This document shows, one piece after another, positions 6,540 to 25,400 of a stretch of 32,000 nucleotides of DNA (positions are counted from its first letter, which is position 1; each line of letters opens with the position of its first letter). Below the pieces are notes generated by a model, which was not told the origin of the DNA, searched no databases, and saw only the letters and a list, made by a program, of their open reading frames with translations. The DNA comes from Candidatus Methanoperedens sp. (lineage in GTDB: Archaea > Halobacteriota > Methanosarcinia > Methanosarcinales > Methanoperedenaceae), in NCBI GenBank assembly GCA_041494705.1, contig JBGQBI010000001.1, positions 450,001-482,000 of the forward strand, given 5' to 3'. Made by a program: the position numbers and the translations under genes.

Positions 6540-6549
6540 CTTCAAGAAA

Positions 6550-7305: not shown

Positions 7306-7375
7306 GTGTTGTTGTTATCGGCGGAATTATTTAAGGTTTGGTTTTTTATATGTATAATCTCTTTTCTTCGATATG

Positions 7376-7405: not shown

Positions 7406-7419
7406 ATTGAACAGGTTGA

Positions 7420-7505: not shown

Positions 7506-7568
7506 ACGGGTGTGTTTTTAATATAGTTTGTAGGCTATTAACCTTTGTAATACTTCATCAGGTGATTC
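7506..7568. promoter_or_regulatory. Possible bidirectional promoter region between tRNA-Ser and the methyltransferase gene
   Basis: An AT-rich TTTTTAATATAG box lies at about 7514-7525, roughly 45 nt upstream of the 7569 ATG. GGTGAT lies at about 7560-7565, just upstream of the ATG. The same box read on the minus strand sits just upstream of the tRNA 5' end. This rests on spacing only. Confidence 0.3.
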
Positions 7569-8225: not shown

Positions 8226-9205
8226 TGGAGCAATTTGATTTTGATATGGAACGCATTTTTAAAATTATAAATGACAAAAAATGCAAAAATATCGGGCTTC
8301 AGTTTCCTGAGGGTTTGAAAAGGCAGGCAATTAAAATCGCAAAGGAGATTGAAGAAAAAACCGGGGCAAGTACTATTATTTCAGGTAACCCCTGCTTCGG
8401 GGCATGCGATATTGATACCATCCTTGAAGGAAAAGTCGATTTGCTTTTCCATTTCGGGCATTCAAAAATGGGCAAACACGATAACGTGGTTTTTATTGAA
8501 ACGCGTTCAAATATCGATGTCCTGCCTGCCGTCAAAATCGCGCTTCCTCTATTAAAAACAAAGAAGATTGGTCTTGTAACTACAGTCCAGCATATTCATA
8601 AACTGGATGAAGTCTCAAAATTCCTGAGGGACAATGGAAAGGAACCGGTTATCGGGAAAGGAGATTTGAGAGTTAGTTATCCGGGGCAGGTATTGGGGTG
8701 TAATTTCACGGCTGCACGCATTGATTGCGAGGAGTACCTTTACGTAGGCAGCGGGTTTTTCCATCCACTTGGAGTTGCTATTGCGACAGGAAAAAGAGTG
8801 GTTGCAGCAGACCCGTATTTGAACCAGGCACAAGAGGTCTCTCCTGAAAAGTTCCTTCGCAAGCGAAGCGGGTATATCGCAAAGGTGATGGATGCAAAAG
8901 TCTTCGGGATAATCGTTTCAACAAAAAGCGGACAGGACAGGATGACGCTTGCGAGGCGACTTCTGGAAATCGCAAATAAGCACGGTATTTCGGCGCAAAT
9001 TATAATGATGGACCTTGTAACTCCCGAACAATTGCTTGGATTCAAAGCCGATGCTTATGTGAATACGGCATGTCCGAGAATCACGATTGATGATTCGGAA
9101 CGATTTCATGTGCCCGTATTGACCCCTGCGGAGTTTGAGATTGTGCTGGGGGAGAGAAAATGGGAAACCATTGAAATGGACGAGATACTGGAAGGGACAG
9201 AGTAG
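8225..9205 (+). CDS. dph2: Diphthamide synthesis enzyme Dph2 (2-(3-amino-3-carboxypropyl)histidine synthase)
   Basis: 326-aa ORF whose start overlaps the upstream stop (TAATG at 8223-8227). FPEGLKRQA is the N-terminal block. Three spaced Cys residues ([21 protein letters not shown]) match archaeal Dph2 4Fe-4S ligands. Confidence 0.85.
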
Positions 9206-9238
9206 CTATTTACTAATCAAATTTCCATGCGCAATGGA

Positions 9239-10033
9239 CTATGGCAGGTATCTTTTCTTTTCAGGGTTGCTGACCGAATGATTATATGGTGGCGGGGGAA
9301 GAATGGTAATATTTACAATGGTATCTGTATGACATCCTTCGCATGCCCAGTACCCTCTTGAAATGAAACCGCTTGAGCCGTTTGCATTGCCCGGCGTTCG
9401 CCCGAATGTTTCGCCTATTCCATAGTTTGAGGACAGATTGCTTGCCTGCAGATAAAATGCCTGGTGTGCGTTTGAAAGGCTTAAATTGTACCCGGCTGCC
9501 GTAATATTGGAGAAACTCCCGAGAATCAGGGGGCTGTTATCGGAATAAACCCTGTTGCCGTGACACCTGTCATCATCGCATACCCTGACTGTTGCCCCTG
9601 TATGCGTAGTTGCGCCTGCACCGAAGAGGGAAGCATTATGGCACAGCATGCATATTTCCACGCCATCTATTTGCCCGTTCCTGTTCACGTCAAGGCTGAC
9701 ATTGGCAGTTTCAAAGGGATTGCTTGAGTTATACCAGACTGTTCCATTCCACGTCCATAGAGAACCATCATATGCGGTTATCGAGCCGTTATAGGCTATT
9801 CCTCCGAGTGAAAGATATGTGGTATAATTAGTATTTCCCGCCGCAGCTTTATGTTTTTCATAAACATATCCGCTGTGTTCAACCTGCGATAATATATCAG
9901 AATGGCATTTCTCGCATGAAACACCCATCCCGCTGTAGAAAGTGTGCTGCCCTGCAAAAAGCGAGACCGTGTTCGGCATCACGTATAAACCGAATACCAT
10001 CAAAGCAAAATATAACAGGATTTTCTTATTCAT
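9239..10033 (-). CDS. Small membrane-anchored or secreted multihaem c-type cytochrome (3 CxxCH + 1 C-x4-CH)
   Basis: The ORF track extends to 10072. I prefer the ATG at 10033 (MNKKILLYFALMVFGLYV...) because it follows GGTGAT and lies 4 nt after the upstream stop. Motifs: CEKCH, CMLCH, CDDDRCH, CEGCH. N-terminal hydrophobic helix. Confidence 0.8.
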   Translation of the reverse strand: MNKKILLYFALMVFGLYVMPNTVSLFAGQHTFYSGMGVSCEKCHSDILSQVEHSGYVYEKHKAAAGNTNYTTYLSLGGIAYNGSITAYDGSLWTWNGTVWYNSSNPFETANVSLDVNRNGQIDGVEICMLCHNASLFGAGATTHTGATVRVCDDDRCHGNRVYSDNSPLILGSFSNITAAGYNLSLSNAHQAFYLQASNLSSNYGIGETFGRTPGNANGSSGFISRGYWACEGCHTDTIVNITILPPPPYNHSVSNPEKKRYLP

Positions 10034-10037
10034 ATCA

Positions 10038-10475
10038 TCACCCCGAACTGTTTGCAAAGAATTGTTTTGCATGCCTGTACAGGGTCGCTGTGTCGCTGGT
10101 TATGTAATGGGCGGACTGGTTTATGCCACTAATATTTACGCTACCGACCTGATGTATCGTGATGTTGCCGTCGTCTTCGTAATTTGAATGGCAGTTTGTA
10201 CAGTAGATATTCTTCGTAAGGTTGTGCGCTGCATTAAGATTGTATGTTTCATTGATATTCGGGTTATAACCATGGCATATACATCCCACATTGGCGTGGG
10301 CGCTCGCATTCACAATTGATACCTTGGTTGGATGACATTTGATGCAGAAATCCACTGCTGTTGTCTTATTTGTGTAAATGGTATGGCTTCCTGAGAATAT
10401 CGCATACGTTGTAAACATGGAGGCGGCTAATAATATCCCAAAGATTGCAAACAATAACAATATTTTCTTATCCAT
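10038..10475 (-). CDS. Small membrane-anchored or secreted c-type cytochrome (2 CxxCH)
   Basis: 145 aa with N-terminus MDKKILLLFAIFGILLAASMF, paralogous to the N-terminus of the downstream gene. Motifs: CIKCH and CTNCH. The start is preceded by GAGGT, which overlaps the stop of the 1514-aa gene (TGAGGTAAATATG). Confidence 0.75.
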   Translation of the reverse strand: MDKKILLLFAIFGILLAASMFTTYAIFSGSHTIYTNKTTAVDFCIKCHPTKVSIVNASAHANVGCICHGYNPNINETYNLNAAHNLTKNIYCTNCHSNYEDDGNITIHQVGSVNISGINQSAHYITSDTATLYRHAKQFFANSSG

Positions 10476-10482
10476 ATTTACC

Positions 10483-13400
10483 TCATGAATATGTCTTGTC
10501 CGGATATGTATGGCAATAATTACAATCTATAGTCTTATTGTAACCATAAGTGGCTATTGCGTTGTTATACAATGCCGAATCATGGCAAACGGTGCAGTCG
10601 GTGATATTTAAAACGTTCGTTCCATTGTAATTATACGGTATACTTGTTATGTTATGCCTGTAGTCGCTTCTCTTATCAGCCGGAATTGGAATCTGCTGCA
10701 CCACAGCATGGCAGTCCTCGCATGCTTTTCTCGCGCCGGTATTATTGTGCCCTTTGGTATGGCAGTCCTCGCATGCCAATGAACCGTGCGGGCTGCTGTT
10801 GAACATGGTTGAATTGACATATTTATCAGGTTTGTTTACACTGCTGCCGTTCATGTAGTCGTAGTTGAAGTGGCAGCTTGTGCATAACCCTGTGCTTATA
10901 TTATGCACAAATTCTTTTATATTGTCAGTAGACTGTGATTTACTATGGCAGCCCTTGCATGTGGAATCGTTATAATCAGGTGTCAGGGAGTGGTTATAAT
11001 AGCCGCTCACATTGTAAGGCGAATAGGAGGAGGAGTTTGTAATCTCAGGAGGCACTGAAAGATTGGCGCCCGTAAAGGCCAGAGTCATGTTAATGTAGTT
11101 CTTTCCGTTGTTGGAATAGCCCAGATAGTGGCATCCTGCACACCAGTTGCCATTACTGGTAATAGATGAATTCATAATGTTGCTCCCGCTCCAGTTGGAA
11201 GGTTTCCCCAGGCCTGTCGCATTATGCCTTGCGTCGCCGTGGCAATAATCGCACATGCTCTGCTGGCTGGTATTTGTCCAATACCCCTGCTGCGTGCCGT
11301 TCCAGAAAGAACCATTCAACGGGTTATCGCCGTGCTGGACTGTGGAGACTTTTGGAGGCTTATTTGAAAGAATTAAATCCAATGTATTTTGCTGGTGGCA
11401 ATCGGTGCAATTTACAGCCGTCTGGTTCGCAGTAGTGTAGTTTCCATTGGGCTGGCTATTGGGCTGGAGATAGGTCATTGGATGGATATTTGTCTTATTT
11501 GGACCTGTATGGCATTCAGTGCAATTGACCGTATTGTTGTGCATTTCTTTATATGTCGTCACTGCTCCGGTATAATTTGTGGTTCCATTTGATGTATTCA
11601 GCCCATGACAACCCAGGCAATATGAGCTATTATACAGTGTGATGTTAATATCCGGTTTAATTAATTGAGCACTATGCAGCGATGCATTTGTACTATTGTG
11701 GCATTCGCTTACGCTGCACGACGGGCTGGAGGAATTATATCTCAGGCTGTGGTTGGATATGCTTCGATTCGCAACATCCTGGAATACACCGTTGAATTCA
11801 CCTGTGCTGTTGCTGTTATGGCAATAAATACAATAATCATAACTCCCTGCAGTCTTTCCAAAGTTTGACCTGTTAGCGCCGTAATGGTAGAAGCTCGTGT
11901 TTCCTCCATTGACCCCTATTCCGTCGCTTGCATACGAGCCGTAATCCGTATCATTATTGGGTATTCTCATCCCTGATATGTTCTCATTCTCATGACATCC
12001 TATACATGAAGCGAGATCACTTGTCTTATTATCCAGCGCCCTGATATTTGTCCCGTTCCTGTAATGATTGGATATAATCGTTGCATTGTATGCTCCTGCA
12101 TTGCTTCCATTCGCAAGATGGCAGTCCGTGCAGGTGTAGGGCGTGTCTCTCTTATCCGGGTGGGTGTTGTTAGCTACTACGTAGCCGCTTGAGTTGTGAC
12201 ATGCCCAGCAGCTTGCGTTTATGCCATAGCCCGAAGCGTTGTTGCTGTTTATGTTTGCATGCACGGATATGCTGAAATTCGCGCCGTCTATGTAATGCAG
12301 GCCGGTGAAGTTCTGGGGATTGGAGTTATTATGGCAGTCAAGGCAGCCGGGACCGCCGCCGAGTACCACTTCGTTTGAATGGAAATCTACCGGCATGCTC
12401 TGGTTTCTGGTATGACAGGTATAGCACGAATTGTTGCTTATTGCGTATCTGTTCCCGAACATGTTGCTGGCGTTTACCTGCATTGCATTGCCCCATCCAT
12501 TTCTTATTGTTTCAATGCTCTGGTTGTGGCAGAACAGGCAGTTGGTGGTGTTGGGCATGCGGTCTATGGGGACTGTCCAGTGAGGTGGATCGTACTTGCC
12601 AACTGGTACAGAAGCATCGTTATACTGTGCATAGTAACCTCCGAAATTAGACTTGTTGAAATAGGGGGCTGCGTGACACGTTCCTTCTCCTGTGACTGCG
12701 TTGTAACTATAGCAGGTGGTAGAGTATGTTGCAGTGCCGCCCTGCGAGGGTACGCTTACATTAGTGCCCGTTATGTTGGAGTAATTGATATGGGAATAAA
12801 CATAGGGCAATGTATCATTTATGTCGCTCCTCAATGAATAGAAAGTGGTCCGGTTCGGGCCGGTGAAGAGACTGGTGGTGTTGGGGAGGTGGCAGTTCTC
12901 GCACAGTTTGACGCTCTGGAGGTTCGTTGCGATCGTGCCGGAGTTTGCTGAACCGTGGCAGGCATAGCACGGCTCGGAATCGCTGGGAACTGAGTTTGAT
13001 TCGTTGAAGTCATCCTGTTCCCAGTCAAAACCACGATCGTACGTAAGGGATGGGACGTCAATACCGCCGTGGATTGAATATGAATAGAACCACGGCTGAG
13101 AGTGGAATGTGTCGTTTGCGTTCGTGGATTTATTATGGCAGTTGCCACAGTCCTGGCTTTTTGCGGGATGTCTTGTGAGGTTGGCGTACCATTCCGTTGC
13201 ATTTGCAGGGGATTTGTGGCACAGCGAGCAGTTGGTGCTGTTTTTGATAAGGCTGGTGTTGGTGGCGTAGTGGGATATATTGGAATAGATTGCATCTATA
13301 GCGTCACCACCACTTATATAAAAACCACTCGTATTAAAACCGCCCATGCTTTTTATGTGGCAGGCGGCGCAATCTACCGAAGAGTTCAAGTCTGATGTAA

Positions 13401-15027
13401 TTTTGTAACCCAAACCTGCTGTGACTTCAATGGTATAATTATACGGTATGTGGTTGTATATTTTCCTCGCACTTAGGTCATTAATCCTGTCTGCATCGGT
13501 GTAGGTGAGGTTGTAGGTCGCATTATGGCATGCAACGCAGCCGGTTATTATTATTGTTGTGTTAAACTCTGTGCCGTTGGTATGGCATGCCCAGCAGGCT
13601 TTGTTCACAGGATCTGATAAAAGATTTGTTTTGTTTGCAAGATGGTTTAGATTTTGATGAGTTGCATTCGAGGACGAGTTCATTTTAGAAACATCCACTT
13701 TAGCTATCGAGTTGTTTGTGGTATTCGACACATCATGACATTTAACACAATCAGAAATATCCCCTGTGAGGTGAACTATCCCACTCTTTTTCACAAGCGA
13801 TTCCTGTCCTGTTATCGCAAAAGGGGACAGCGAACCTGTGCCGGCGCTTAACGTGCTATTTGTAATGTCCCTGATGGTTTCAAGCATCTCCCATTGTGTA
13901 ACATTCCAGTGATAGACTACAAGCGTATTTTCATTTACATTGTTGAGTTCGGCTTTGCTGTAGTGTATAGTTACTTCTGCTGATGAAAATGATATATTCT
14001 CCGCGCTAATCTCCACAAATTTTACAACCTTTCCCGGAACCGGAACTGGCACGGGGTTTTTCTTCCCGAAATCATCAAGAATGACTTTTCCTTTCCCGTG
14101 GACTGAAGCATTTTCCAGCTTCAGGGCGGCATTTTTTGTGGGGATTGCATCAATTTTAAAGGTTTTTGGATTATCCGGTGCTGCGCTGGCTACGGGTAGA
14201 AAAAAATCCAGAATTGAATAAAATATCACTGCCGGCTCGGTGATAATCGGGAAAGCCAGCCCGATTAGACCTGAGTTGTTTACCTTACGATAAGATTTGA
14301 CCAGCGAATTGTTTTCAAATATCTCTACAGTTGAATTGACAAGAGAACCCGATGTATCTATGACATTGATGTCCCACTCCGGAGAAGGAGCCACAATCGC
14401 AAAGACTGACAAAGAGTTCACCGTCGTGCCCAGGATATTATTTACCGCATCGATTTTTGTTGGCAGTTCGTTCCATACCTGCATAGCGCCATCGTACTTG
14501 TAAATAGTAAGGTTATTCACATCCAGTCCGCTCACTTCCGCATCCGTGTATTTTATTGATATATCGGCGTTAGAAAAGGAAACGCCGCTGGAATTGACTT
14601 CAACGTACTTTACCGGCGTCCCGGGCGCGGATACATTTACGCTCCCGGGCTGGTTGATACCGTAATTTTCCAGTACTACCCTTCCTTTTGGCGAATCACC
14701 TGAAATCCGAAGATTGATTGATATGCCCTTGGTTGCAAAATCATCATAACTGATTATAGTGCCAGGGATTCCGTGCCAGCTTATAAGATTGACATCCGGT
14801 TTTGGAGGGCCGCTTGATACCCCATCTCCGCTTAAAGATATTGCGCCCGTTAACGGATTTCCTGCACTGTCTGTGAATGTTATCTCGCCGCTTGTTTTTT
14901 GCGCTTCGGTATGTGTAAGTATTGGAGGAAAATACAATAAAGCCGCAGCTATGCCTGATAAAACTACAAACACAAGTATTATGAGCCTGATATTAGAGAG
15001 GCCTGCCTTATCTCTTAAAACATCCAT
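10483..15027 (-). CDS. Giant multihaem c-type cytochrome (1514 aa) with N-terminal anchor and two S-layer-type (PGF-pre-PGF-like) beta domains
   Basis: N-terminal TM/signal IRLIILVFVVLSGIAAALLY. A non-haem region (aa ~45-410) contains two related ~100-aa domains. From aa 427 on I hand-counted 26 CxxCH, plus CSVSECH (C-x4-CH) and CYSYNAVTGEGTCH (C-x11-CH). Extremely Asn/Ser/Thr rich. Confidence 0.9.
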   Translation of the reverse strand: MDVLRDKAGLSNIRLIILVFVVLSGIAAALLYFPPILTHTEAQKTSGEITFTDSAGNPLTGAISLSGDGVSSGPPKPDVNLISWHGIPGTIISYDDFATKGISINLRISGDSPKGRVVLENYGINQPGSVNVSAPGTPVKYVEVNSSGVSFSNADISIKYTDAEVSGLDVNNLTIYKYDGAMQVWNELPTKIDAVNNILGTTVNSLSVFAIVAPSPEWDINVIDTSGSLVNSTVEIFENNSLVKSYRKVNNSGLIGLAFPIITEPAVIFYSILDFFLPVASAAPDNPKTFKIDAIPTKNAALKLENASVHGKGKVILDDFGKKNPVPVPVPGKVVKFVEISAENISFSSAEVTIHYSKAELNNVNENTLVVYHWNVTQWEMLETIRDITNSTLSAGTGSLSPFAITGQESLVKKSGIVHLTGDISDCVKCHDVSNTTNNSIAKVDVSKMNSSSNATHQNLNHLANKTNLLSDPVNKACWACHTNGTEFNTTIIITGCVACHNATYNLTYTDADRINDLSARKIYNHIPYNYTIEVTAGLGYKITSDLNSSVDCAACHIKSMGGFNTSGFYISGGDAIDAIYSNISHYATNTSLIKNSTNCSLCHKSPANATEWYANLTRHPAKSQDCGNCHNKSTNANDTFHSQPWFYSYSIHGGIDVPSLTYDRGFDWEQDDFNESNSVPSDSEPCYACHGSANSGTIATNLQSVKLCENCHLPNTTSLFTGPNRTTFYSLRSDINDTLPYVYSHINYSNITGTNVSVPSQGGTATYSTTCYSYNAVTGEGTCHAAPYFNKSNFGGYYAQYNDASVPVGKYDPPHWTVPIDRMPNTTNCLFCHNQSIETIRNGWGNAMQVNASNMFGNRYAISNNSCYTCHTRNQSMPVDFHSNEVVLGGGPGCLDCHNNSNPQNFTGLHYIDGANFSISVHANINSNNASGYGINASCWACHNSSGYVVANNTHPDKRDTPYTCTDCHLANGSNAGAYNATIISNHYRNGTNIRALDNKTSDLASCIGCHENENISGMRIPNNDTDYGSYASDGIGVNGGNTSFYHYGANRSNFGKTAGSYDYCIYCHNSNSTGEFNGVFQDVANRSISNHSLRYNSSSPSCSVSECHNSTNASLHSAQLIKPDINITLYNSSYCLGCHGLNTSNGTTNYTGAVTTYKEMHNNTVNCTECHTGPNKTNIHPMTYLQPNSQPNGNYTTANQTAVNCTDCHQQNTLDLILSNKPPKVSTVQHGDNPLNGSFWNGTQQGYWTNTSQQSMCDYCHGDARHNATGLGKPSNWSGSNIMNSSITSNGNWCAGCHYLGYSNNGKNYINMTLAFTGANLSVPPEITNSSSYSPYNVSGYYNHSLTPDYNDSTCKGCHSKSQSTDNIKEFVHNISTGLCTSCHFNYDYMNGSSVNKPDKYVNSTMFNSSPHGSLACEDCHTKGHNNTGARKACEDCHAVVQQIPIPADKRSDYRHNITSIPYNYNGTNVLNITDCTVCHDSALYNNAIATYGYNKTIDCNYCHTYPDKTYS
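13807..14691 (-). repeat. Two copies of a ~100-aa beta-sandwich domain (archaeal S-layer / PGF-pre-PGF-like) within the 1514-aa cytochrome
   Basis: Copy 1 (14389-14691) reads GRVVLENYG...PVKYVEVNSSGVSFSNADISIKYTDAEVSGLDVNNLTIYKYDG..WNELPT...LSVFAIVAP. Copy 2 (13807-14097) reads GKVILDDFG...VVKFVEISAENISFSSAEVTIHYSKAELNNVNENTLVVYHWN..WEMLET...LSPFAITG. Confidence 0.6.
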
Positions 15028-15191
15028 TTTTTTGACCCTGGTTTTCTACATTGTTTTCATTCCAATCCTATTTTCCTATCACCTTAATTGTTATTTATGC
15101 GCGTTCAAAATAAATAGGTTTACATGATTTTAATTGAATGAACATAATTATCAATCAGGAACCTGGCTTTTGGTTGTATTGAATGGCATTA

Positions 15192-16028
15192 TCATGACGT
15201 TAAATAATCCGTATGACGCCCGCTATATACATACCCGACACCGAATGCGGAAAATGCAAGTATGAAGATGCTGAAAATGATTAGCCATGCAATCCTTTTT
15301 CCGGTCCATCCCGCATTCATCCGCAGGTGCAGGCAAATCCCGTATGTGAACCATGAAATCAAAGACCATGTCTCGATGGGGTCCCAGCCCCAGTACCTCC
15401 CCCATGTCTGGTTTGCCCATATAGCGCCTGCTGCTATCATGATAGTAAGGGCGAAAAATCCCAATGCCACGAAACGATACATAAGATCGTCCATTGTTCG
15501 CAAGTCGGGCAGCCTGTCGTAAAATGAATCCTGGACTCCGGTATTTAAGTGCTTCTCTTTCAATATATAAAGAGCAGCAATGCCTGCCGCTACCATTACT
15601 GACCCGAAGCCAAGACTTGCAAAACCCACATGGACTATCAGCCAGTAACTCTGGAGAGAAGCCGGTATCATCTGGATATCCCTCGAATAAGTCGAACCTA
15701 TAGCCATCATCAAAAAGGATGCGGGCAGCACTATAAATCCTGCAATCTTTATCTTTTCATATTTTTGCTGCGCGAGCAGGAATATAACTACGGAAAACCA
15801 TGCATATTTTGATAAAACCTCGTACATACTGATGTAGGGACCGTGCCCTGTTTCTATCCACCGCAGGGCTATGGAAACGCTGTGGAACAACAAGCCGATT
15901 AGGGCGCTGCTGACTGCAAGATTTATTCTTTCTTCTTTCTTGAAAACAAGGCAGTATAAGTAAACAGCCGAACTGAGCGCATAAAGCATTGCAGCGGCCA
16001 CGTACATAATCCATTCAGTCTGTCCCAT
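15192..16028 (-). CDS. ccsA: Cytochrome c biogenesis System II haem-handling protein CcsA/ResC
   Basis: 278-aa polytopic membrane protein with the tryptophan-rich WWD-type motif WGRYWGWDPIETWSLISW followed by a conserved His (CLHLR). Confidence 0.9.
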   Translation of the reverse strand: MGQTEWIMYVAAAMLYALSSAVYLYCLVFKKEERINLAVSSALIGLLFHSVSIALRWIETGHGPYISMYEVLSKYAWFSVVIFLLAQQKYEKIKIAGFIVLPASFLMMAIGSTYSRDIQMIPASLQSYWLIVHVGFASLGFGSVMVAAGIAALYILKEKHLNTGVQDSFYDRLPDLRTMDDLMYRFVALGFFALTIMIAAGAIWANQTWGRYWGWDPIETWSLISWFTYGICLHLRMNAGWTGKRIAWLIIFSIFILAFSAFGVGYVYSGRHTDYLTS

Positions 16029-17415
16029 GTAACCTCTTAATCTTATCTACAATACCTGAATATTCTTCTTCATATAAAGACCTGAACTTATCCGCCCGCC
16101 CTCCTATATAAATTTCCACTGCACCGGACTTTTCATCCCTCTTAACCTCAACCCATACCCTTTTAGGGATTATAAAGAAAGATACCATCAGGCTGAGTAT
16201 CATCAATCCGGCTCCCGCATACACAAGAGGCGTTCCGTCGTCCTTCACCACGTAGAAATTACTCCAGTATTTTATATCGTAAAAACCAAGATATTTATCA
16301 GATATTTTCACGGTCTCGTTGAGCCGCAAAGTCCCATCGTAAATCTGCTTTCCCCTGTCAAATACCCTCAAAAACATGATAGGTGTTTTTTCGGCTTCGG
16401 ATTCCATGAGTTTTCCTGTCAAAGGCGCAGTCATGTAAACCATCAATCCCCCTTCAAGCCCCGTATTCCCCATTTCAAATGATGCGACATACCTCCCGCT
16501 GTTATCGAGGTCTGATGCGGTTATATACGAGCCGGAATATACCGTCCCGTCAGGATTTTTCAACAACAGCAGCGGCGCAAGACCATAGACGTTTCCAAGA
16601 AACGTGTATCCATTATAAGTCATCATGTGATTTGAATATACGATATCAGTTTTCACTTTCTGACCATTCTCTATTATGGCAAGCTCACCTGCTGCTCCGC
16701 GAGGCGTATGTGTTTCATCCTTATAATCAGGGAAGAATCTCTCAAGAGATATACCGAATTTCCGATGTTGTTCATAAAAAAAAGGACCTTCATTGATAAA
16801 CATATAGTTCCCGTGCTCTTCTTCCATGGTCTGTCCCTCTATTAATCGCATATCCCCTTCCATCCTGCCCGTACTGCCGTAAACCGCAGCTATTATGATG
16901 AAAAGTATGCTGATGTGAAATAGCGATGTGCCCATTATCCCTAGCCTGTTTTTTTCAGCAAGAATGCAATTCTCTTCCTGCCATACCTTATATCCTGCGG
17001 ACTTAAGTAAAGAACCAGTTTCAGAAATAACACTGTTGCTATCTTTTTTTGTTTTAATTACCGAGCTGTTCTCAAGTCCGGTAATGTATGCTTTTTTTTG
17101 GAATTGTGGAGCATTGAGCCTTCGAAAAGCGTTGTTCAACATCGTTCTTGTGCAAAAAAGAGTATTGATGACAAGGAGCGCCGCTATACTTAAAAATATA
17201 AATGATGAAAAAAGATGGGTAAAACCGATTTTCTCAAAGATATCAGCCTGCTCCGGATGGGCAGACTTCCATTTATCATATACATCAGGCTTGAGCTGCG
17301 ATTGCTGGGGTACATGGGTCCCGATTATCGAAAATACGATAATAAGAGTAATAAGAACTATCGCAAGTTTTCTGGAGCTAAAAAAAGTAGCGATTTTGCC
17401 CATACTAAAATCCAT
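16015..17415 (-). CDS. resB: Cytochrome c biogenesis System II protein ResB/CcsB (Ccs1)
   Basis: 466 aa with a ResB-type N-terminus FFSSRKLAIVLITLIIVFSIIGTHVPQQ, a large soluble loop and a C-terminal TM YAGAGLMILSLMVSFFIIPKRVWVEV. It overlaps ccsA by 14 nt. Confidence 0.85.
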   Translation of the reverse strand: MDFSMGKIATFFSSRKLAIVLITLIIVFSIIGTHVPQQSQLKPDVYDKWKSAHPEQADIFEKIGFTHLFSSFIFLSIAALLVINTLFCTRTMLNNAFRRLNAPQFQKKAYITGLENSSVIKTKKDSNSVISETGSLLKSAGYKVWQEENCILAEKNRLGIMGTSLFHISILFIIIAAVYGSTGRMEGDMRLIEGQTMEEEHGNYMFINEGPFFYEQHRKFGISLERFFPDYKDETHTPRGAAGELAIIENGQKVKTDIVYSNHMMTYNGYTFLGNVYGLAPLLLLKNPDGTVYSGSYITASDLDNSGRYVASFEMGNTGLEGGLMVYMTAPLTGKLMESEAEKTPIMFLRVFDRGKQIYDGTLRLNETVKISDKYLGFYDIKYWSNFYVVKDDGTPLVYAGAGLMILSLMVSFFIIPKRVWVEVKRDEKSGAVEIYIGGRADKFRSLYEEEYSGIVDKIKRLHGTD

Positions 17416-17542
17416 TATTTTATCTTCCTGGCTTATTGTTTTTCTAATGTATTACGTTGTTCCATAGAATTGATGCGCATCTCACTATACCCTTGATAAG
17501 TAGATATAAATAACTTTGCAGATGATGTAAACGTAAACTAAA

Positions 17543-18010
17543 ATGACGCCTCTAAATAAAATAATCGTCCTGATTGCCCTGGGTTCAGTTCTCGTTTTAT
17601 CGGCTGCCTGGTGGGATTCGCAATCAGGAAACAATTCAGCTTTTATCAAACTTGGCGGTGTTTCATTTCATACATCAATAGAACCGGGAATCACAGAGGC
17701 AAAGAACTTAAGCAAACCTGTTTTCCTGTATTTCAGGTCAGAAACGTGTTACTGGTGCATAAGATTTGAAGATGAAGCCCTGTCTGATAAAAGGGTCATC
17801 GATAAACTCAATAAAAATTTTGTTCTTATATCGATAGATACATTCAAACAAAAAAATGTTTCTCTCAATCTCAATGTACGAAATACCCCGTACATGATTT
17901 TCTTTACAAAAGACGGCGAAGAGATATCAAGAATCCCGGGCTACCTGCAAACTGACGATTTCCTGGTAAAATTAGATTCCGTATCTGAAAACCTCAACCG
18001 GAGCTCTTAG
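17543..18010 (+). CDS. Membrane-anchored thioredoxin-fold protein with CYWC active site (ResA/CcsX-like candidate)
   Basis: 155 aa with an N-terminal TM IIVLIALGSVLVLSAAWW, then PVFLYFRSETCYWCIRFEDE (CxxC in thioredoxin context). Transcribed divergently from resB. Confidence 0.7.
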   Translation: MTPLNKIIVLIALGSVLVLSAAWWDSQSGNNSAFIKLGGVSFHTSIEPGITEAKNLSKPVFLYFRSETCYWCIRFEDEALSDKRVIDKLNKNFVLISIDTFKQKNVSLNLNVRNTPYMIFFTKDGEEISRIPGYLQTDDFLVKLDSVSENLNRSS

Positions 18011-19454
18011 TTGCAGTTATATATGTTTCAATAAACTTCTTAACCTGAGGTGGCATCTCCCCTTTCATCTGGTTTGAGAGGTAAGAATCGTTGATGAGCA
18101 GTCGCGTGACCTCTATCATGTAGTTTTTCTTAAAATCGCTCATCTCCTCAATCTTTTCAAGCTTTCCCATGTAAAAATCCCGGAACGCCTTTAAAAGATG
18201 TTTATTTAGCTCCTCCCGCGTCATGTTGACGGGCCTGACTATCGGTTCGATAAGATTGTATTTTGAATAATCAAATTCCTCTATATACGGCGCAAGTTCA
18301 GGATAAATATCAGAATAAGGCCATGGGGCAATTGCAAGGAAAAACGCAAGGTCAGGATTATAATACTGCGCCAGCTTACATGCCGCCTCTATGGATTCGG
18401 GCGTTTCTTCCGGCATCCCAAGGACAAAAGATGTCTCCGAAATAATCCCGGTATTGTTTATCAGGTCAATCGCTTCCCTTGACTGCCCTATCCTGATATT
18501 TTTCTGATAGCGGTCAAGTGTATCCTGGCTTGCGGATTCCGCTCCCACGTAGATATGAAGGATTCCCGCCTTTTTGTATTTATCAATTATATCCTTATCA
18601 CGCAGGATGTCGTCCACCCTTGTTTCCATCAGGAGTTCAAGGTCAAGTTCTTTCTCGATGAGCAGATCAAGGATTTTCTCCCACCGTTTGCGGTCATACG
18701 TGGGGGTTTCATCAGCTATCATGGCAACATCCACGCCATATGTGCTGTTTAAGTATTCAAGCTCGGATACGAAGTTTTCAGGGCTTCTCCCTCTCCATTT
18801 CTCCCTCCAGAAAAGACGCTGCGAACAGAAGGTGCATTTCTGGGTGCAGCCCCTTGAAGAACTCACGACTGCAAGTGTGGAATTTTTCTTTGTCTTGAAT
18901 GTATAATCCTTCCACTCTATAAGGTTCCATGCCGCAGGCATTGTGTCCAGATTTGAGATGAGAGGCCGTTCTTTCGTGCAGATGATTTTCCCATCCCGCG
19001 CATAAGCAATTCCCGGGGTATCCGGGTTTTTTTCTGCAAAAACCTGGCTTAAAAGTTCTGATGTAGTGATTTCACCTTCGCCGCGTATGATATAATCTAC
19101 TATGCTCCTCTCTTTTTGCAGGATTTCCTCCCAGCAGAAAGTGGGATGGATGCCGCCAAGGAGCGTAATTATCCCCGGATTTACCTCTTTAGCTACCTTG
19201 AGAACCGCAATAGCATCGTAAAGGCTTGATGTATATGCCGCCGTGCCCACAACATCGGGAGTGATTTCTTTTATGCGCCTTTTGATGTCATCAAAAGTAT
19301 GGTATTTTGACATCGCATCGTATATGCTGACTTCATACCCGGATTTTTGCAGGCTTCCGGCAACATAGACCATGCCAAGTGGCATCCATGTGCCTGCGGA
19401 TTCGAGTACGCCGCAGTGGTAAGGCGGTGTTATTAACAGGACTTTTTTAGACAT
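17994..19454 (-). CDS. B12-binding domain radical SAM protein (class B)
   Basis: The ORF track starts at 19517. I prefer the ATG at 19454 (MSKKVLLITPPYH...), which removes the overlap with the upstream gene. The N-terminal region looks like a Rossmann-type cobalamin domain. Radical SAM motif SSSRGCTQKCTFCS. Confidence 0.85.
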   Translation of the reverse strand: MSKKVLLITPPYHCGVLESAGTWMPLGMVYVAGSLQKSGYEVSIYDAMSKYHTFDDIKRRIKEITPDVVGTAAYTSSLYDAIAVLKVAKEVNPGIITLLGGIHPTFCWEEILQKERSIVDYIIRGEGEITTSELLSQVFAEKNPDTPGIAYARDGKIICTKERPLISNLDTMPAAWNLIEWKDYTFKTKKNSTLAVVSSSRGCTQKCTFCSQRLFWREKWRGRSPENFVSELEYLNSTYGVDVAMIADETPTYDRKRWEKILDLLIEKELDLELLMETRVDDILRDKDIIDKYKKAGILHIYVGAESASQDTLDRYQKNIRIGQSREAIDLINNTGIISETSFVLGMPEETPESIEAACKLAQYYNPDLAFFLAIAPWPYSDIYPELAPYIEEFDYSKYNLIEPIVRPVNMTREELNKHLLKAFRDFYMGKLEKIEEMSDFKKNYMIEVTRLLINDSYLSNQMKGEMPPQVKKFIETYITATKSSG

Positions 19455-19482: not shown

Positions 19483-22437
19483 TTATATTTTGTGTTTCTT
19501 CCAGAACCATAGTGCAACTATTCCTATTACCAACGAAAATGCAGCTATGTAGGTTAAATATGGTTTTGTTACTATTTTAACAATCTCTTTGCCATGAAAA
19601 CTTTTTAATTCTCCTTCAACATGGCATCCCCAGCAATCCTTATTTCCAATATTACTATGTTGCGAATCCGAAGGCAGGGCTCTGGGATTCCCCCATGCTT
19701 TTCTTATAGTTTCATTTTCCTGGATATGGCAGAAAACGCAATTTTTTGAATCCGGCATGTAATCAACAGGAGAATTCCAGTGGTAAGGGTCGCCCTTGTT
19801 AAATAATGTGCCTGTATAATTTGTATTGAAGGAAAAATAACCGCCTGCTTTTGCTTTATTCCCGAACGTCACGCCATGGCACGAACCCTGGCCGGTTGCT
19901 GCATCAAATCCGAAGCAGGAAGACCTTGTATTACCTAAAGAAGACTGGTCTGTCACATTGATGGGAGAATTATTGTAATGGGAATATACCACCGGGATAT
20001 ATTTTGTAATATCGGGCCGCACGTTAGCAAGGGGACTTAGCTCCGGGTTTACTTTTACATGGCAGTCTTCACATACATTCAATTTCGGCGATACATGCTC
20101 CGTCATTTTTACGTGGCACACCGGGCAGCTTTCATTCAGCCTGTCAGCTCCTTTTTCATTGGCATTATCCCCTTCCCAGTCAAAACTATCATGCATGAAT
20201 CCGGGTGAAAATGGCTTTTCCGGATGTTTACCGTTTGAAAAAGTAGTATTGTAATGACAGTTTTCACAATTGTTGCCAGTCGTTCCATGCCTTATTTTAT
20301 GGCATGAGGTACAATCTTCGGCCGCTGAATAAGAAGTAGAATTCACACCTGGCAATTTGTCTGCGGCTGATAGTTTCGGGGTTGTATCGCTATTATTATA
20401 TTTGCCGCCGGAATTATCCATTGTTGTCGGGAGAGACATGGTTATCCTGACCACAGCGGTTTTCATTGTTTCTGCGTTACCCGCATTATCCAAACTGAAA
20501 TATTTAATGGTATGTCCGCCTTCTTCATTAAAAGTAAGCTGTATATATGGTAAATAAGATACCTGCCCGACTCCATCCACTATGTAGTTTATTGCTTCAA
20601 CACCTGAGATATTATCAGAAGCTGTAATATTGAGAGTTACATTTGCAGTGTGCCACGTACTGTCTGAGTTATCGACCGTCTGTGGAGGGATATTATCAAT
20701 CCTGATAGTGGCAGTATGAGGTTGTTCAGCGTTCCCTGCATTATCCACACTATAATACCTGATAGTATGATTGCCTTCCCCGCTTATGGAAACGGTTGTG
20801 CCTTTCAGAGAGTATGATGTAGGAATTGGGCCATCAACGGTGTAATAAGTTTCCATTATACCTGAGCCTGCATCGCTGGCAGTAAGCATGACCGCAACGC
20901 TGCTATTATACCATTGACCATCAGCATTGTCTGACGTAAGAGGTGGGGTTTTGTCGATTTTCACCTGGCTCGGTGCTGTCTTTATCCCTTCGACATTGCC
21001 TGCTTTATCCACGCTGAAATATTTGATAGTATAAATCCCTTCATTTGAAATACTAAATGTTGTTCCTTCTGTGGAGTTTACTGTTGGTTCTGTTCCATCA
21101 ATAGTATAGTACGTGGCTGCCACCCCGCTTTCATTATCTTTCGCTGTCAATGTAACTGTAACGCTGCTATTATGCCATTGCCCGTCCACATCATCCGTGG
21201 TTGCGGGAGGTATGGTGTCCGCTGGTTTGTTATAGTAAGTATAGGCATAGATGTTCCCATTGGAATTCCCCAATATAATCTCCTTGTTGCCGTCCCCTTC
21301 CAGGTCCGCTATAGTCGCCGATGTAAACATATCATTAGCGACCCTTGTATTTTCAAGGACATTTCCCTGGTTATCCCATATATACAGGTTCCCGTATGCG
21401 TCGCCGGCTGCAATTTCCATCTTCCCGTCGCCGTTTATGTCTCCAAGCGCGAGATTACTGTCAACCCTTCCGATAGAAGAAAATTCTTTCAGGATGCCAT
21501 TCCTTATCAGATATATTTTTTTCTCATCATTTGAGGCGATTGCCGCACTAATCACGCCTGTGCCGTCTATATCGCCCGTGCCAGGAGATGCTAGGTTACT
21601 TTTTATGTTAAATTTATAAAGCTGATTACCGCTATTATCGAAAATAGATACTCCCGATGACGAAGTCACAATAATTTCATTCCTACCGCTCCCCTCAAAG
21701 TCACCGAACCTTGCGCTTCTCGCATCCCCTCCGAGATCCCTGCTCCAGAGAATTGTTCCCATAATACTATTTACTTTTATTACCCAGATTTTCCCATCTA
21801 TTGGATTTGCAGAATTGATATCCTGGGTTAAAATAACAGCCTCATCGATTCCATCCCCGTCGATATCGCCAACCGGGATTGGCGCCCTGTAATTCACAGC
21901 CTTTCCAAGCTCAAGATACCAGAGTTTATTTCCAGAGCTGTCGAATGCATACACACCTGTAGCCTGGGTTATTGATCCCAAAGACGACCCCGGAGCCGCC
22001 CCGGTAAGAATTATTCCTTCTTTTGTAATTGACGGGGAGGAAATAAGCAGATATTTTCCCGGCGTTATATTCGCAATATTATTACCCGCAGTATCCCAGA
22101 TATAAAAAGTGGCATCCGAGTAACCGGGATTACCATAAGAAATTATTTCAAGCCTGCCGCTGATATTGGCTACCAGAGGAGTTCTTGCTTCATCTGCCAG
22201 ATTTATTCCGCCGGTATTCTCCCAGTCAAGGACGCCCATATAATTGAACACTTTAATCATCCTGTTATCGGGCGCCGCTATTATCTCAGGTTTCCCGTCT
22301 CCGTCTATATCCTGTACAACTAAAAGGGATTTAATTGGGCTACCAGTATTGACAGGGAAACCTGCGTGTTGTTCTATCTTGGCAGATACTGTTGTTATCA
22401 TTAGAAACACTGTTAAAAATAAAACTAGTTTATTCAT
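19483..22437 (-). CDS. FG-GAP beta-propeller / triple Ig-like repeat / hexahaem cytochrome c fusion protein with C-terminal TM anchor
   Basis: The preferred start at 22437 (MNKLVLFLTVFLMITTVSA) is preceded by GGAGGGAGGAG and lies 1 nt after the upstream TAA. Six or more FG-GAP-like Ca-binding loops are present (DIDGDGKPEII, GDIDGDGIDEAVI, GDFEGSGRNEIIV, GDIDGTGV, GDINGDGKMEIAAG, ADLEGDGNKEIILG). Then come three ~88-aa repeats, then CTSCH, CENCH, CPVCH, CEDCH, CVFCH, CWGCH plus CFGFDAATGQGSCH. The C-terminus is IAAFSLVIGIVALWFWKKHKI. Confidence 0.9.
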   Translation of the reverse strand: MNKLVLFLTVFLMITTVSAKIEQHAGFPVNTGSPIKSLLVVQDIDGDGKPEIIAAPDNRMIKVFNYMGVLDWENTGGINLADEARTPLVANISGRLEIISYGNPGYSDATFYIWDTAGNNIANITPGKYLLISSPSITKEGIILTGAAPGSSLGSITQATGVYAFDSSGNKLWYLELGKAVNYRAPIPVGDIDGDGIDEAVILTQDINSANPIDGKIWVIKVNSIMGTILWSRDLGGDARSARFGDFEGSGRNEIIVTSSSGVSIFDNSGNQLYKFNIKSNLASPGTGDIDGTGVISAAIASNDEKKIYLIRNGILKEFSSIGRVDSNLALGDINGDGKMEIAAGDAYGNLYIWDNQGNVLENTRVANDMFTSATIADLEGDGNKEIILGNSNGNIYAYTYYNKPADTIPPATTDDVDGQWHNSSVTVTLTAKDNESGVAATYYTIDGTEPTVNSTEGTTFSISNEGIYTIKYFSVDKAGNVEGIKTAPSQVKIDKTPPLTSDNADGQWYNSSVAVMLTASDAGSGIMETYYTVDGPIPTSYSLKGTTVSISGEGNHTIRYYSVDNAGNAEQPHTATIRIDNIPPQTVDNSDSTWHTANVTLNITASDNISGVEAINYIVDGVGQVSYLPYIQLTFNEEGGHTIKYFSLDNAGNAETMKTAVVRITMSLPTTMDNSGGKYNNSDTTPKLSAADKLPGVNSTSYSAAEDCTSCHKIRHGTTGNNCENCHYNTTFSNGKHPEKPFSPGFMHDSFDWEGDNANEKGADRLNESCPVCHVKMTEHVSPKLNVCEDCHVKVNPELSPLANVRPDITKYIPVVYSHYNNSPINVTDQSSLGNTRSSCFGFDAATGQGSCHGVTFGNKAKAGGYFSFNTNYTGTLFNKGDPYHWNSPVDYMPDSKNCVFCHIQENETIRKAWGNPRALPSDSQHSNIGNKDCWGCHVEGELKSFHGKEIVKIVTKPYLTYIAAFSLVIGIVALWFWKKHKI
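20422..21219 (-). repeat. Three tandem ~88-aa (~264-nt) Ig-like domain repeats, plus a truncated fourth copy immediately downstream
   Basis: Each unit reads PP.T.D..DG.W.N..V.V.LTA.D..SG...TYYT.DG......G.T..IS.EG.HTI.Y.S.DNAGN.E. The copies are diverged at nucleotide level. A partial fourth unit (PTTMDNSGGKYNNSDTTPKLSAADKLPGV) is fused to the haem domain. Confidence 0.75.
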
Positions 22438-22438
22438 T

Positions 22439-25400
22439 TTACCTGTTTCTCCTCCCTCCAGTGCTTGGTTGAACATGGCAGCCCGTTGAGAAGCATCCGC
22501 TACTGCCTACATACATGCCTATATTTTTATCATGAAGTGTCATATTAACCTGCGGATTGGAATTATGGCATGAAGACTGGCAGGAAATCCCTGTGCTGCC
22601 CATTATATTATGACTAGATGGTAAGATTCTGGCATTTCCATAATCCTTCCCCACTGCACCTGCGTTATGGCATTTATTGCATCCAAAATTTGTTCCCGTT
22701 GTGGCTCTCGTATCGGGCAGTATGCCTGTTACTGCTGATGGCATACTTTCACCGAGTGTCCTGCTAACCACGTAATGCGATACCGAGGCGTTCTTTAATT
22801 TTTCCGCGGCATAGCCGCCATAATTAATGTTCTGGTTTGCTACTAAACTATTATTATGACATGAAACGCACGTCCTGTTAGAGTCCACGTTATCGTAAAC
22901 CACCGTGCCTGAAAATACCGAACCCGGATAATGCCGGTACACTAAAGTGGCATTGAAATTATTATTGACATGACAATACTCGCATGGTTTTGGATACTGA
23001 TAATTAACCGGATGCTTTTCCGGCTGGGTGCCATTGCCATGACATGCCCAGCAGGCTTTGTTTATCGGGTCCAATACTGAGGTGTTGGTTGCATTACTGT
23101 TAAGATTCGCATGCACGCCAAGCTTCATCGCACTAAAGTTTATCTTCCTGTCGTCCGGCGCCCCGTTTCCTGATACATCGTGACATGAAACACAATCAGG
23201 TCCGCTCGCGCTGGGTTTAAGATTGTGGCTAAAGTCAAGCGAAGTGGCGCCTGTTTTGAGCGCGCTGCCGTGGCAATTTTTACATTTAATATCATCATAT
23301 CCCGAGGAAAGCGCACCTGAATGGTTGTAGAAAGCTGTGCCATCCCTGGAAGTAAGCGGGACAAGTCCGCCCATGTTTAACACTTCAGGAGGCACCGGAT
23401 TGAGAAGGTTCCCCGAGTAATTGGGCGCATTCTTGTAATGGCAGTTGGCACACCAGTAACTTCCGTTTAAGCTCTGGTTGTTTGTATTGTTCCCCATGAT
23501 CTTTGTGATATTGCCCAGAGCTGATGCATTATGGAGGGTAATACCATGGCAGTAAACACATGCGCTCTGCGTGTCGCTGTTTGTCCAGTAACCCTGCTGC
23601 GTGCCATTCCACAGTGAACCGTTATAAGGATCGGCGCTGTGATTCATGGGCGCGGGGATTTTCGGGGCAGTGCTGAAGTTGCCAGGACCGCTCTGGTGGC
23701 ATGTGGTACAGTTTACTGCATTTGTCCTTGATGTGCTGAAGTTGGAGCCGTCCTGCTGGAGGTACCGCACCGGATGGATGCTCCTGCTATCGTTGAGATG
23801 GCAGTCTGTACAATTTACGGCATTATTGTGTGGTTGTTTAAAACCAGTTACTGCTCCTGTATAATTTGTGCCGCCGGTGCCGTTGTTGCCGTGACAGCTC
23901 AAGCATAAACGGTTATTATTCACGGGCGACGCCGGCTTGTAAAGTGTACTGTTGTGAATTCTGCCAGCCTGGGTTGCATGGCAGTCCGTACAACCCGGAT
24001 TGGAGGAGGGATAGCCGGATGAGTGGTTTGCTATCGTCTTGTTTGCATTATCGATGAACGGAAATACTGTTGTCTGGTTGTTGTGGCATTTATTACAGTA
24101 ATCGTTTGTTCCCTGTGCAGGGTAATCAGTGCGTTTCTTGCCATAATGACTTGTGCTATTGCTTCCGCCGTTTTCACCGCCGTAAACGCCTGCTGCGCCG
24201 TCAGGGTCAGGGTTTGTGCCCAGCATCATCTCAGTCCTATTATGGCAATCATAGCACGTGGTCACCGCCTCCGTTCTTATACTGGTGCCGTTCCAGTAGT
24301 GCTGGGTTACGTATGGTATTATTGCAATAAGATCTCCATACATATTATGGCATACTGCACAGCTTATACCTATGTGCCTCGTAACATGGCAATCCACACA
24401 TCTGTAGGGTGTCTTGTAATTGGATGGATGACTACTTCCCGGTTCGTTGCCGTTGCCGTGGCATGCCCAGCATTTCTTGTTCTCTGCGGGCAGGGTTGTT
24501 GTGGTTCTGCTGTTCAGGTCACTGTGGATGGCGTTTACATCGTTCATCGCACTGATATTTACAAGTTTTCCTGCACCGGCTGAGCCTCCGATGTTGTGGC
24601 AGCCTGTACAGTTGGCTCCTCCTGCCTGTCCTATACCCACATTATGGCTAAAGTTGAGAGACGTTGCCCCTGCATTGAGGTTATTATCATGGCAGTTCTT
24701 GCACGTAGCATCATCATAGCTTGTTGAGATTGCACTTGAATGGTTGTAGAATGAAGTTCCATCTTTGGAAATTACAGGGACAAGCCCGCTCTGGTTTAAC
24801 ACCTCAGGCGGCTGCTGAGTTAACAGGTTTCCTCCATAATCGGGTGCAGTCTTATAATGGCAGTTTGCACACCATCTACTTGTGGTAAGGTCCTGATTTA
24901 AACTATTCGTCCCTTTGACGTTGCTTACGCTACCCAGTGCTGAGATGCTGTGAAGAGTCGATAGACCGTGGCAGTAATAACATGCGCTCTTCTGGCTTGT
25001 ATTATCCCAGTAAGCGGATTGCAAGCCATTCCAGAGGACGCCTGCATATGGGTCTGTGCTGTGGTTCAAAGGTACTGGAATCTGTGGCGGGTTCCTGCCT
25101 GTGTAGTTGCCTGCCTTGGGCTGCGCTTTCAGAGCAGCGAAGAACGAAGCGTTCTGGTGGCAATTGGTGCAGTTGCCTCTTGCTGGATTTGGATTATTAT
25201 GATTCAAATCTACATACGTGGCGTTCTGTGCAAACACCTGTATGTCATGCACATCGTCGCTGTGGCATAGTGTGCAGTTCACGCCGCCCGATGTGGTGTT
25301 GCTTGAGTTGTGCTCGGTATTGCTTGTGTGGCAGGTTTTACATTGAGAATCTTCTGTATTACTATTCCTTATAAATCTCTGGGTTTCATCAGGTTTAGTG

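Follow-up and report, generated by a model that had tools for sequence, protein, structure and literature searches.

The 32,000-nucleotide (nt) window analysed here (Candidatus Methanoperedens sp., GCA_041494705.1, contig JBGQBI010000001.1, positions 450,001-482,000 forward) contains resB and ccsA, the genes of a System II cytochrome c synthase, in the company of genes for very large multiheme cytochromes. The machine is canonical; the host is unexpected. The two open reading frames (ORFs) overlap by 14 nt (16015-16028), an overlap that is also present in L001, L002, L083 and L085 of the loci with which the window was compared (labelled L001 etc., where L081 and L082 are the window genome's own copies). 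The gene for a cytochrome of 1514 amino acids (aa) starts 164 nt past the ccsA stop codon. The features at the core of the locus are, in window coordinates:

16015..17415, minus strand: ResB/CcsB, 466 aa, heme-channel and apocytochrome-handling subunit of System II (Pfam PF05140)
15192..16028, minus strand: CcsA/ResC, 278 aa, WWD-domain heme-handling synthase subunit (PF01578, TIGR03144)
10483..15027, minus strand: multiheme cytochrome c, 1514 aa, candidate substrate (Pfam domains Cytochrome_C7 and MtrC/MtrF)
17543..18010, plus strand: membrane-anchored thioredoxin-like protein, 155 aa, with a CYWC motif (Pfam matches Thioredoxin_2, Thioredoxin_7 and DsbH)
17416..17542, no strand: AT-rich divergent intergenic region of 127 bp between resB and the thioredoxin gene, with presumed promoters (from reading the sequence)
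17994..19454, minus strand: B12-binding radical S-adenosylmethionine (SAM) protein, BchE-like, 486 aa as called in L081/L082 (Pfam domains B12-binding and Radical_SAM)

An earlier note on this DNA, made from the sequence alone, had described ResB and CcsA with their overlap, their place directly upstream of the 1514-aa cytochrome gene and the divergent thioredoxin with its CYWC motif (C69-Y-W-C72). The ORFs and the Pfam and NCBIfam assignments bear out this description, which missed that the adjoining B12-radical SAM gene is a member of the cassette. The note was also right that no CcdA or DsbD is encoded in the window. Pfam scans, which covered 25 window ORFs, found neither, and phmmer over all six-frame window ORFs returned no archaeal CcdA, CcmE, CcmF or CcmH. 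The sole signal of the Ccm queries was a weak cross-match of CcmF to CcsA via the WWD domain that both have in common. Nothing of the kind of CcmA, CcmB or CcmC appeared in the Pfam scans, no direct query for these having been made.

The identity of the two synthase subunits is clear. ResB, which contains SSRKLAIVLITLIIVFSIIGTHVPQ, matches PF05140 with an E-value of 3.7e-55. CcsA matches PF01578 (Cytochrom_C_asm) with an E-value of 1.1e-40 and in addition exceeds the cutoff of the System II-specific NCBIfam model TIGR03144 (CcsB equivalog; 200.6 bits, cutoff 187.6). In the alignment with the CcsBA of H. hepaticus (7S9Y), the WWD motif of the window CcsA, WGRYWGWDPIETW, corresponds to WGRYWGWDSKETW, the external histidines H133 and H272 correspond to H761 and H897, and the membrane histidine H234 to H858. 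A hydropathy scan of ResB gave four hydrophobic segments (17-35, 68-86, 160-178 and 398-416), the last two of which are separated by a loop of about 220 aa that is read as external. As a single sequence ResB had no relevant phmmer match among the solved structures even at E 10, but a profile made from 20 ResB sequences matched two solved CcsBA proteins in their CcsB part and aligned H167 with the CcsB-part histidine of the B. thetaiotaomicron CcsBA (25vk). This H167, located in the third hydrophobic segment, is one of only three invariant columns in the alignment of the 20 archaeal and bacterial ResB sequences. H67 (GFTHLF) and H34 (IGTHVPQ) had also been considered as heme ligand and were dropped, because these positions are occupied by N, G, Y or I in orthologs. 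All CcsBA proteins have one transmembrane (TM) histidine in CcsB and one in CcsA, according to a review from the Kranz laboratory (PMC10663686). Thus, the sequence-level features of System II are all present in ResB and CcsA, and the synthase looks like a working one.

The window pair belongs to the same two families as the bacterial CcsBA, CcsB-CcsA and ResB-ResC proteins, of which 7S9Y and 7S9Z (H. hepaticus) and 25vk (B. thetaiotaomicron) have been solved. The WWD motif is nearly identical to that of the solved proteins and both the external and the TM histidines are present. The bacterial layout also holds for ResB, with its four TM segments and large external domain, and for the genes, which adjoin and overlap. 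Yet, the solved CcsBA proteins are fused whereas ResB and CcsA are separate proteins in an archaeal host; CcsA is at most 45% identical to the best bacterial CcsA, and ResB reaches the solved structures via the profile only. Moreover, unlike the genes of the solved bacterial proteins, those of the window share a cassette with the genes of a B12-radical SAM protein and of a thioredoxin of the DsbD-gamma type.

The host is a Candidatus Methanoperedens chromosome, because archaeal genes lie on both flanks and the closest homologs carry the name Candidatus Methanoperedens. The housekeeping genes at the window flanks encode ELP3, a polyprenyl synthase, NIF3, the diphthamide synthase Dph2, a CofH-like enzyme and MarC, where diphthamide synthesis is a trait of archaea and eukaryotes. 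More than 120 Methanoperedens-type homolog clusters were collected for each of ResB and CcsA. Identity to the window CcsA is 65-94% among the best 120 CcsA homologs, and identity to the window ResB is 57-100% among the ResB homologs. Those with a name are listed as Candidatus Methanoperedens, Methanoperedenaceae or 'uncultured archaeon', and the gene order of the window recurs on independent contigs and assemblies.

Outside this lineage the similarity drops to bacterial levels. The closest CcsA proteins were compared in a collection with one genome per species, in which at least two archaeal species were among the matches listed: a Methanoperedens (76%) and 'ANME-2 cluster archaeon B4-08' (55%). 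Beyond these two, the matches listed held only bacterial CcsA, at 44% identity or less. An exhaustive search of 50%-identity representatives yielded one CcsA cluster at 54%, followed by Frackibacter (45%), Thermoleophilia (44%) and other bacteria; the nearest bacterial groups (Frackibacter, Thermoleophilia, Actinomycetes, Nitrospirales and Geobacter) all remain at or below 45%. In a neighbour-joining tree of 112 CcsA sequences, all archaeal ones form one clade inside the bacterial radiation, which was recovered in 100/100 bootstraps. The guanine-plus-cytosine (GC) content, the GC content at third codon positions (GC3) and the distance in relative synonymous codon usage (RSCU) of resB, ccsA and the radical SAM gene are within the spread of the housekeeping genes of the window. 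No ResB was found in a viral collection.

Considering the monophyletic archaeal clade among bacteria, the many homologs within the lineage and the host-like composition, the data point to a single ancient transfer from bacteria, after which the genes ameliorated to the composition of the host and descended vertically. The cassette of B12-radical SAM, ResB and CcsA genes would have entered an ancestor of the Methanoperedens lineage once, long ago, and would have been inherited vertically since. In this respect the earlier note needs revision on two points. The horizontal acquisition that it proposed holds for the bacterial origin and not for a recent event, in view of GC content and codon usage, and System II is no peculiarity of the island, considering the number and the identity range of the homolog clusters, but a vertically inherited trait of the lineage. 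Of the checks that it had put forward, the comparison of GC and codon usage with the flanking genes placed resB and ccsA in the range of the housekeeping genes, and the CcsA phylogeny placed the archaeal proteins among bacteria, with no defined bacterial donor group.

A few relatives carry the name of a bacterial metagenome-assembled genome (MAG) in NCBI, namely P0080 and P0163 ('Zixibacteria') and P0183 ('Limnocylindrales'), with CcsA/ResB proteins that are 66-72% identical to those of the window. P0080 falls within the Methanoperedens clade of the CcsA tree, and the three are probably mis-binned Methanoperedens contigs.

The published view of cytochrome c maturation in archaea is, as the earlier note had stated, that of System I. 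The one systematic survey, in which Ca. Methanoperedens nitroreducens was included, reported systems II-V to be absent (Kletzin, PMC4429474). For ANME-2d, one of the groups of anaerobic methanotrophic archaea (ANME), CcmABCEF and CcmH were described and only Ccm was discussed (Chadwick et al. 2022, PMC9012536). Full-text searches of the literature found no report of System II for Methanoperedens, ANME or the archaea at large, while the ResB and CcsA proteins have already been named correctly by the NCBI and JGI pipelines. The System I-only picture (PMC4429474) needs correction, as a widespread group of methane-oxidising archaea also has an intact System II, another case of bacterial respiratory hardware that entered the Methanoperedens lineage.

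The Methanoperedens lineage has both systems. With the CcmF of L002 as query many Methanoperedens CcmF proteins were found, among them the CcmF of M. nitroreducens and that of M. nitratireducens; a word-based search gave about 37 Methanoperedens CcmF clusters among the matches listed. In L083 (Methanoperedens assembly GCA_012026835.1, contig VEPN01000060.1) the genes of both systems make up one co-oriented string (8046-15376) in the order radical SAM, thioredoxin, ResB, CcsA, CcmE, CcmF and CcmH, where the CcmE has an archaeal CxxxY-type motif (CPSKY). A like order in another MAG is implied by the consecutive accessions MCZ7406416 (CcmF) and MCZ7406419 (ResB). In L002 a CcdA..CcmH-CcmF arrangement is directly beside ResB-CcsA, and in L085 a CcmE gene comes after the giant cytochrome gene. 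System II is thus not the sole maturation system of the lineage, the case that would have made it a general housekeeping trait according to the earlier note, because the lineage has both. The string in L083 raises the possibility of a common regulation of Systems I and II or of a functional coupling between them. The names M. nitroreducens and M. nitratireducens are missing from all 128 ResB clusters, where most database entries are unnamed, and this is a weak sign of a patchy System II distribution that would fit Kletzin's negative result.

The archaeal variant of System I (CcmABCEF, with the CxxxY-type CcmE) makes the same end product in the same lineage and its genes are sometimes physically adjacent to those of System II (L083, L002). 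It likewise includes maturation genes beside those of giant cytochromes, such as the ANME CcmF2 near MHC-B (PMC9012536, PMC9084895). The machinery itself, however, is unrelated to the window pair, save for the common WWD heme-handling domain.

The gene neighbourhood of the pair is that of giant extracellular cytochromes. On the same strand and upstream of resB-ccsA are the radical SAM gene and the genes of a 997-aa FG-GAP/heme protein and of a cytochrome of about 1690 aa, while the 1514-aa cytochrome gene downstream of ccsA is followed by two small cytochrome genes that end the same-strand string:

19483..22476, minus strand: FG-GAP beta-propeller protein, 997 aa (Pfam FG-GAP_3 and CHB_HEX_C_1)
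22439..27532, minus strand: giant multiheme cytochrome, about 1690 aa (Pfam domains CarboxypepD_reg and MtrC/F-like)
10038-10475, minus strand: small c-type cytochrome, 145 aa (2 CxxCH; weak Pfam cytochrome match)
9239-10072, minus strand: small c-type cytochrome, 277 aa (3 CxxCH; weak Pfam cytochrome match)

The 1514-aa cytochrome has an N-terminal hydrophobic anchor, both small cytochromes have N-terminal hydrophobic segments, and the FG-GAP protein has a C-terminal TM segment. Synteny between the cassette and a giant cytochrome was observed in five of the seven Methanoperedens contexts examined (the window, L001, L085, L086 and L088), as well as in the closest bacterial loci. The Methanoperedens cytochromes concerned measure 1500-2850 aa and have CarboxypepD_reg and MtrC/F-like domains. 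Their gene directly follows ccsA in L085 and L088 and comes after one intervening gene in L001 and L086. The window differs in that a cytochrome with Cytochrome_C7 and MtrC/F-like domains follows ccsA, whereas the CarboxypepD_reg cytochrome is upstream.

Because the cassette nearly always adjoins the genes of giant cytochromes, System II would most likely work alongside the archaeal Ccm and provide added capacity for, or be specialised in, the giant extracellular multiheme cytochromes. Taking the evidence together, we consider it likely that the window encodes a complete System II synthase on a Methanoperedens chromosome, which derives from a single old transfer from bacteria, operates next to Ccm and probably serves the giant cytochromes. 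Several observations weigh against this reading or parts of it. The cassettes of L083 and L087 have no adjoining giant cytochrome, and System II genes beside multiheme cytochromes are common in cytochrome-rich bacteria generally. The argument for dedication to the giant cytochromes is one of gene neighbourhood, which makes it plausible, and a general role or added capacity is equally compatible with the data. The CcsA tree is distance-based and does not settle the bacterial sister or donor group. Finally, neither the Pfam scans nor phmmer found a CcdA within the window, and the thioredoxin was not found beside the bacterial cassettes examined.

A general role could go further, such that System II serves as the main housekeeping system for c-type cytochromes of every kind, specialisation lies with the Ccm paralogs, and the position beside giant cytochromes reflects incidental co-regulation. 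In line with this, the cassette is widely conserved in the lineage, it lies in L087 among ribosomal-protein and FtsZ genes, and nothing in its canonical catalytic residues suggests an altered specificity; on the side of System I, a dedicated role has been assigned to the CcmF2 paralog beside ANME MHC-B (Chadwick 2022, PMC9012536). Archaeal Ccm alone, however, suffices for cytochrome c maturation in Methanosarcina (PMC9084895), and the names M. nitroreducens and M. nitratireducens, absent from the ResB clusters, are both present among the CcmF proteins, a weak hint that System II is dispensable in some cytochrome-rich members of the lineage. Incidental co-regulation also has to contend with a giant-cytochrome synteny that returns in five of seven contexts. 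We regard the housekeeping role as possible, yet rather unlikely.

A different kind of dedication is suggested by the heme-binding motifs in the window, namely that of a lyase for unconventional motifs with CX11CH or CX3-5CH as target. The 1514-aa cytochrome has 26 CxxCH, one CX4CH (CSVSECH) and one CX11CH (CYSYNAVTGEGTCH, residues 771-784). The FG-GAP protein has six CxxCH and one CX11CH (CFGFDAATGQGSCH, residues 853-866) that is similar in internal sequence (C[YF]xxxAxTGxGxCH). In the cytochrome of about 1690 aa (1687 aa in the L082 gene call) there are 26 CxxCH together with a CX3CH, two CX4CH and a CX5CH. In Wolinella succinogenes, CcsA1 acts on CX15CH and NrfI on CXXCK. The synthase genes of that organism (CcsA1, CcsA2 and NrfI) lie beside particular cytochrome genes and there is more than one maturation enzyme, which constitutes a precedent for a dedicated lyase; the System II isoenzymes dedicated to odd motifs are reportedly described in Kern et al. 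2010 and Hartshorne et al. 2007. However, CX11CH, the only motif that was screened across loci, was seen only in the window genome's copies (L081, L082) and in none of the cassette-adjacent cytochromes of L001 and all bacterial loci, a comparison that does not support it as a reason for a dedicated lyase. In addition, the CcsA active-site residues are canonical, and in L083 and L087 the cassette has no such neighbour. Unlike in Wolinella, no link between the cassette and unconventional motifs could be established across the loci, and the second system is here System I instead of another System II. A lyase for unconventional motifs is therefore improbable in our judgement.

The adjacency of both systems could also be taken to mean that ResB-CcsA is mainly a heme exporter, which feeds a ligation module of archaeal CcmE, CcmF and CcmH and is not an independent synthase. 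We know of no precedent for a transfer of heme from CcsBA to CcmE. CcsA keeps the two external histidines and the WWD site that are needed for ligation itself, and no ccm gene adjoins the pair in the window, L086 or L088. This is to be set against the co-oriented string of L083 and its implied counterpart in the other MAG, the CcmE after the giant cytochrome in L085 and the CcmF/H beside ResB-CcsA in L002. Since, moreover, ANME genomes have been reported to contain CcmABC for the loading of CcmE (PMC9012536), we give such a hybrid system very little weight. Hardly any credence is due to an artefact, in which a bacterial fragment was mis-assembled or mis-binned into an archaeal genome, or to a decaying relic: mis-binning of Methanoperedens contigs is the simpler explanation for the few bacterial MAG names, archaeal genes lie on both sides within one contig, the arrangement is found on many independent contigs and assemblies, the composition matches that of the host, and intact frames with conserved catalytic residues, despite an ortholog divergence down to 57% identity, point to purifying selection.

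To return to the complete synthase favoured above, its thiol-reduction branch would be served by the divergent thioredoxin. The protein has a single N-terminal TM segment (hydropathy scan), its NCBIfam and PDB matches are to the C-terminal (gamma) domain of DsbD, and C69, W71 and C72 do not vary among seven Methanoperedens orthologs, each of them encoded beside resB. It is a probable apocytochrome thiol reductase. A CcdA is encoded near ResB-CcsA in L002. In B. subtilis a membrane-anchored thioredoxin-like gene is next to resB-resC and CcdA is encoded elsewhere. The ResA-ResB-ResC system with CcdA of this bacterium resembles the window system in its single-membrane envelope and in this thioredoxin gene, whereas the window protein is of the DsbD C-terminal/Thioredoxin_7 type with CYWC and not of the ResA/TlpA type.

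The conserved residues and the CcsBA structures allow a mechanism to be drawn. Heme b would enter from the cytoplasmic side and be held between the TM histidines H167 of ResB and H234 of CcsA. It would then pass along the channel to the WWD site on the outside, with H133 and H272 of CcsA as its ligands there. The DsbD-gamma-like CxWC thioredoxin would keep the cysteines of the apocytochrome reduced, with electrons that it may receive from a CcdA encoded elsewhere.

The orientation of the thioredoxin gene varies. It is inverted with respect to resB in the window and in most other Methanoperedens loci examined, and co-oriented between the radical SAM gene and resB in L083/L084 (L083 9508-9993). 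This difference between the window and L083/L084 implies a small inversion within the cassette. In the window the 3' end of the thioredoxin gene overlaps the 3' end of the convergent radical SAM gene by 17 nt (17994-18010).

The linkage with the radical SAM gene is the part that is most likely to hold something new. The encoded protein has one CxxxCxxC motif, and its best NCBIfam match is BchE (TIGR02026) with 401.3 bits, below the cutoff of 481.35, so that it is BchE-like and not BchE; when delimited mechanically, its ORF reaches as far as a TTG at 19517. The gene is syntenic with those of thioredoxin, ResB and CcsA in L001, L083, L085, L086 and L088. More specifically, the order B12-radical SAM, thioredoxin, ResB and CcsA is that of the window, L001, L085, L086 and L088, and L083 has the same four genes followed by ccmEFH. 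L087 has thioredoxin, ResB and CcsA only (4861-7670), near ribosomal-protein and FtsZ genes and an S-layer cytochrome.

L087 and L088 come from one assembly, GCA_040960625.1, which thus holds two distinct Trx-ResB-CcsA loci (L087 4861-7670 and L088 7979-12200) with ResB proteins that are 63% and 74% identical to that of the window. The radical SAM gene and a giant cytochrome accompany the locus of L088, whereas L087 lies among the ribosomal-protein and FtsZ genes. The pair represents either true paralogs or a mixed bin.

The association with radical SAM extends to bacteria. A homolog with 38-54% identity to the copy of the window adjoins ResB-CcsA, 8-2238 bp from CcsA, in eight of the 24 closest bacterial loci, as compared to 0/54 of the more distant bacterial loci (hypergeometric p about 3e-5, where the split into two groups was made post hoc). 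The eight loci are from a Nitrospirales, two Nitrospiraceae, Geobacter, an Acidobacteriota, a Lentisphaeraceae, Anaeromyxobacter and a gammaproteobacterium, and thus from at least five phyla. The positions of their radical SAM genes are:

L004: 2515-3987
L005: 11536-13008
L006: 19327-20772
L008: 10866-12362
L017: 6987-9308
L018: 11281-12840
L022: 1025-2539
L026: 11149-13095

Most of these eight loci have very large cytochromes beside ResB/CcsA, for instance one of 2185 aa with 20 CxxCH in the Geobacter locus and one of 2464 aa with 55 CxxCH in the Anaeromyxobacter locus. Two of them, L005 (Nitrospiraceae) and L006 (Geobacter), contain a second ResB-CcsA pair. The comparison of the radical SAM and CcsA phylogenies over the eight bacterial cassettes gave no signal of co-phylogeny (Mantel r -0.21), on a small sample of divergent sequences. 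These arrangements suggest a specialised and mobile System II cassette. Tentatively, a cross-domain cassette of BchE-like B12-radical SAM, ResB and CcsA, joined by thioredoxin in archaea, may travel with giant cytochromes in Methanoperedens and in electroactive bacteria (Geobacter, Anaeromyxobacter, Nitrospirota, Acidobacteriota, Lentisphaerota and a gammaproteobacterium) and include the radical SAM protein as an undescribed maturation accessory, a proposal to which we attach rather limited confidence. Being related to a porphyrin-modifying enzyme, the radical SAM protein might modify heme or the apocytochrome before export; a role in the maturation of heme or cytochromes is our guess. If the association across bacteria and archaea is true, it would imply an unrecognised maturation step for very large cytochromes. 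No paper was found in the literature in which ResB and multiheme cytochromes are linked to a radical SAM enzyme.

The methane-oxidising archaea at issue have the largest known multiheme cytochrome repertoires, on which their metal- and electrode-reducing activity depends. As System II adjoins the genes of giant extracellular cytochromes, and sometimes ccm genes, it is of relevance to extracellular electron transfer. In practical terms, resB-ccsA is a concrete target for the heterologous production of ANME cytochromes, for example in Methanosarcina or E. coli hosts.

Some minor observations concern the remainder of the window. Among the housekeeping genes are sizeable ORFs with no Pfam match at E <= 0.001, namely 3164-3550 (plus strand, 128 aa), 3568-4698 (plus strand, 376 aa), 5172-6263 (plus strand, 363 aa) and 31202-31864 (minus strand, 220 aa). 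A scan of the locus for sigma-70 promoters and terminators is not meaningful for an archaeon and was left unused. The 1514-aa cytochrome and the cytochrome of 22439-27532 (minus strand) contain 96 and 93 N-x-S/T sequons, respectively, or roughly one per 16-18 residues, which suggests that these two giant extracellular cytochromes are very heavily N-glycosylated.

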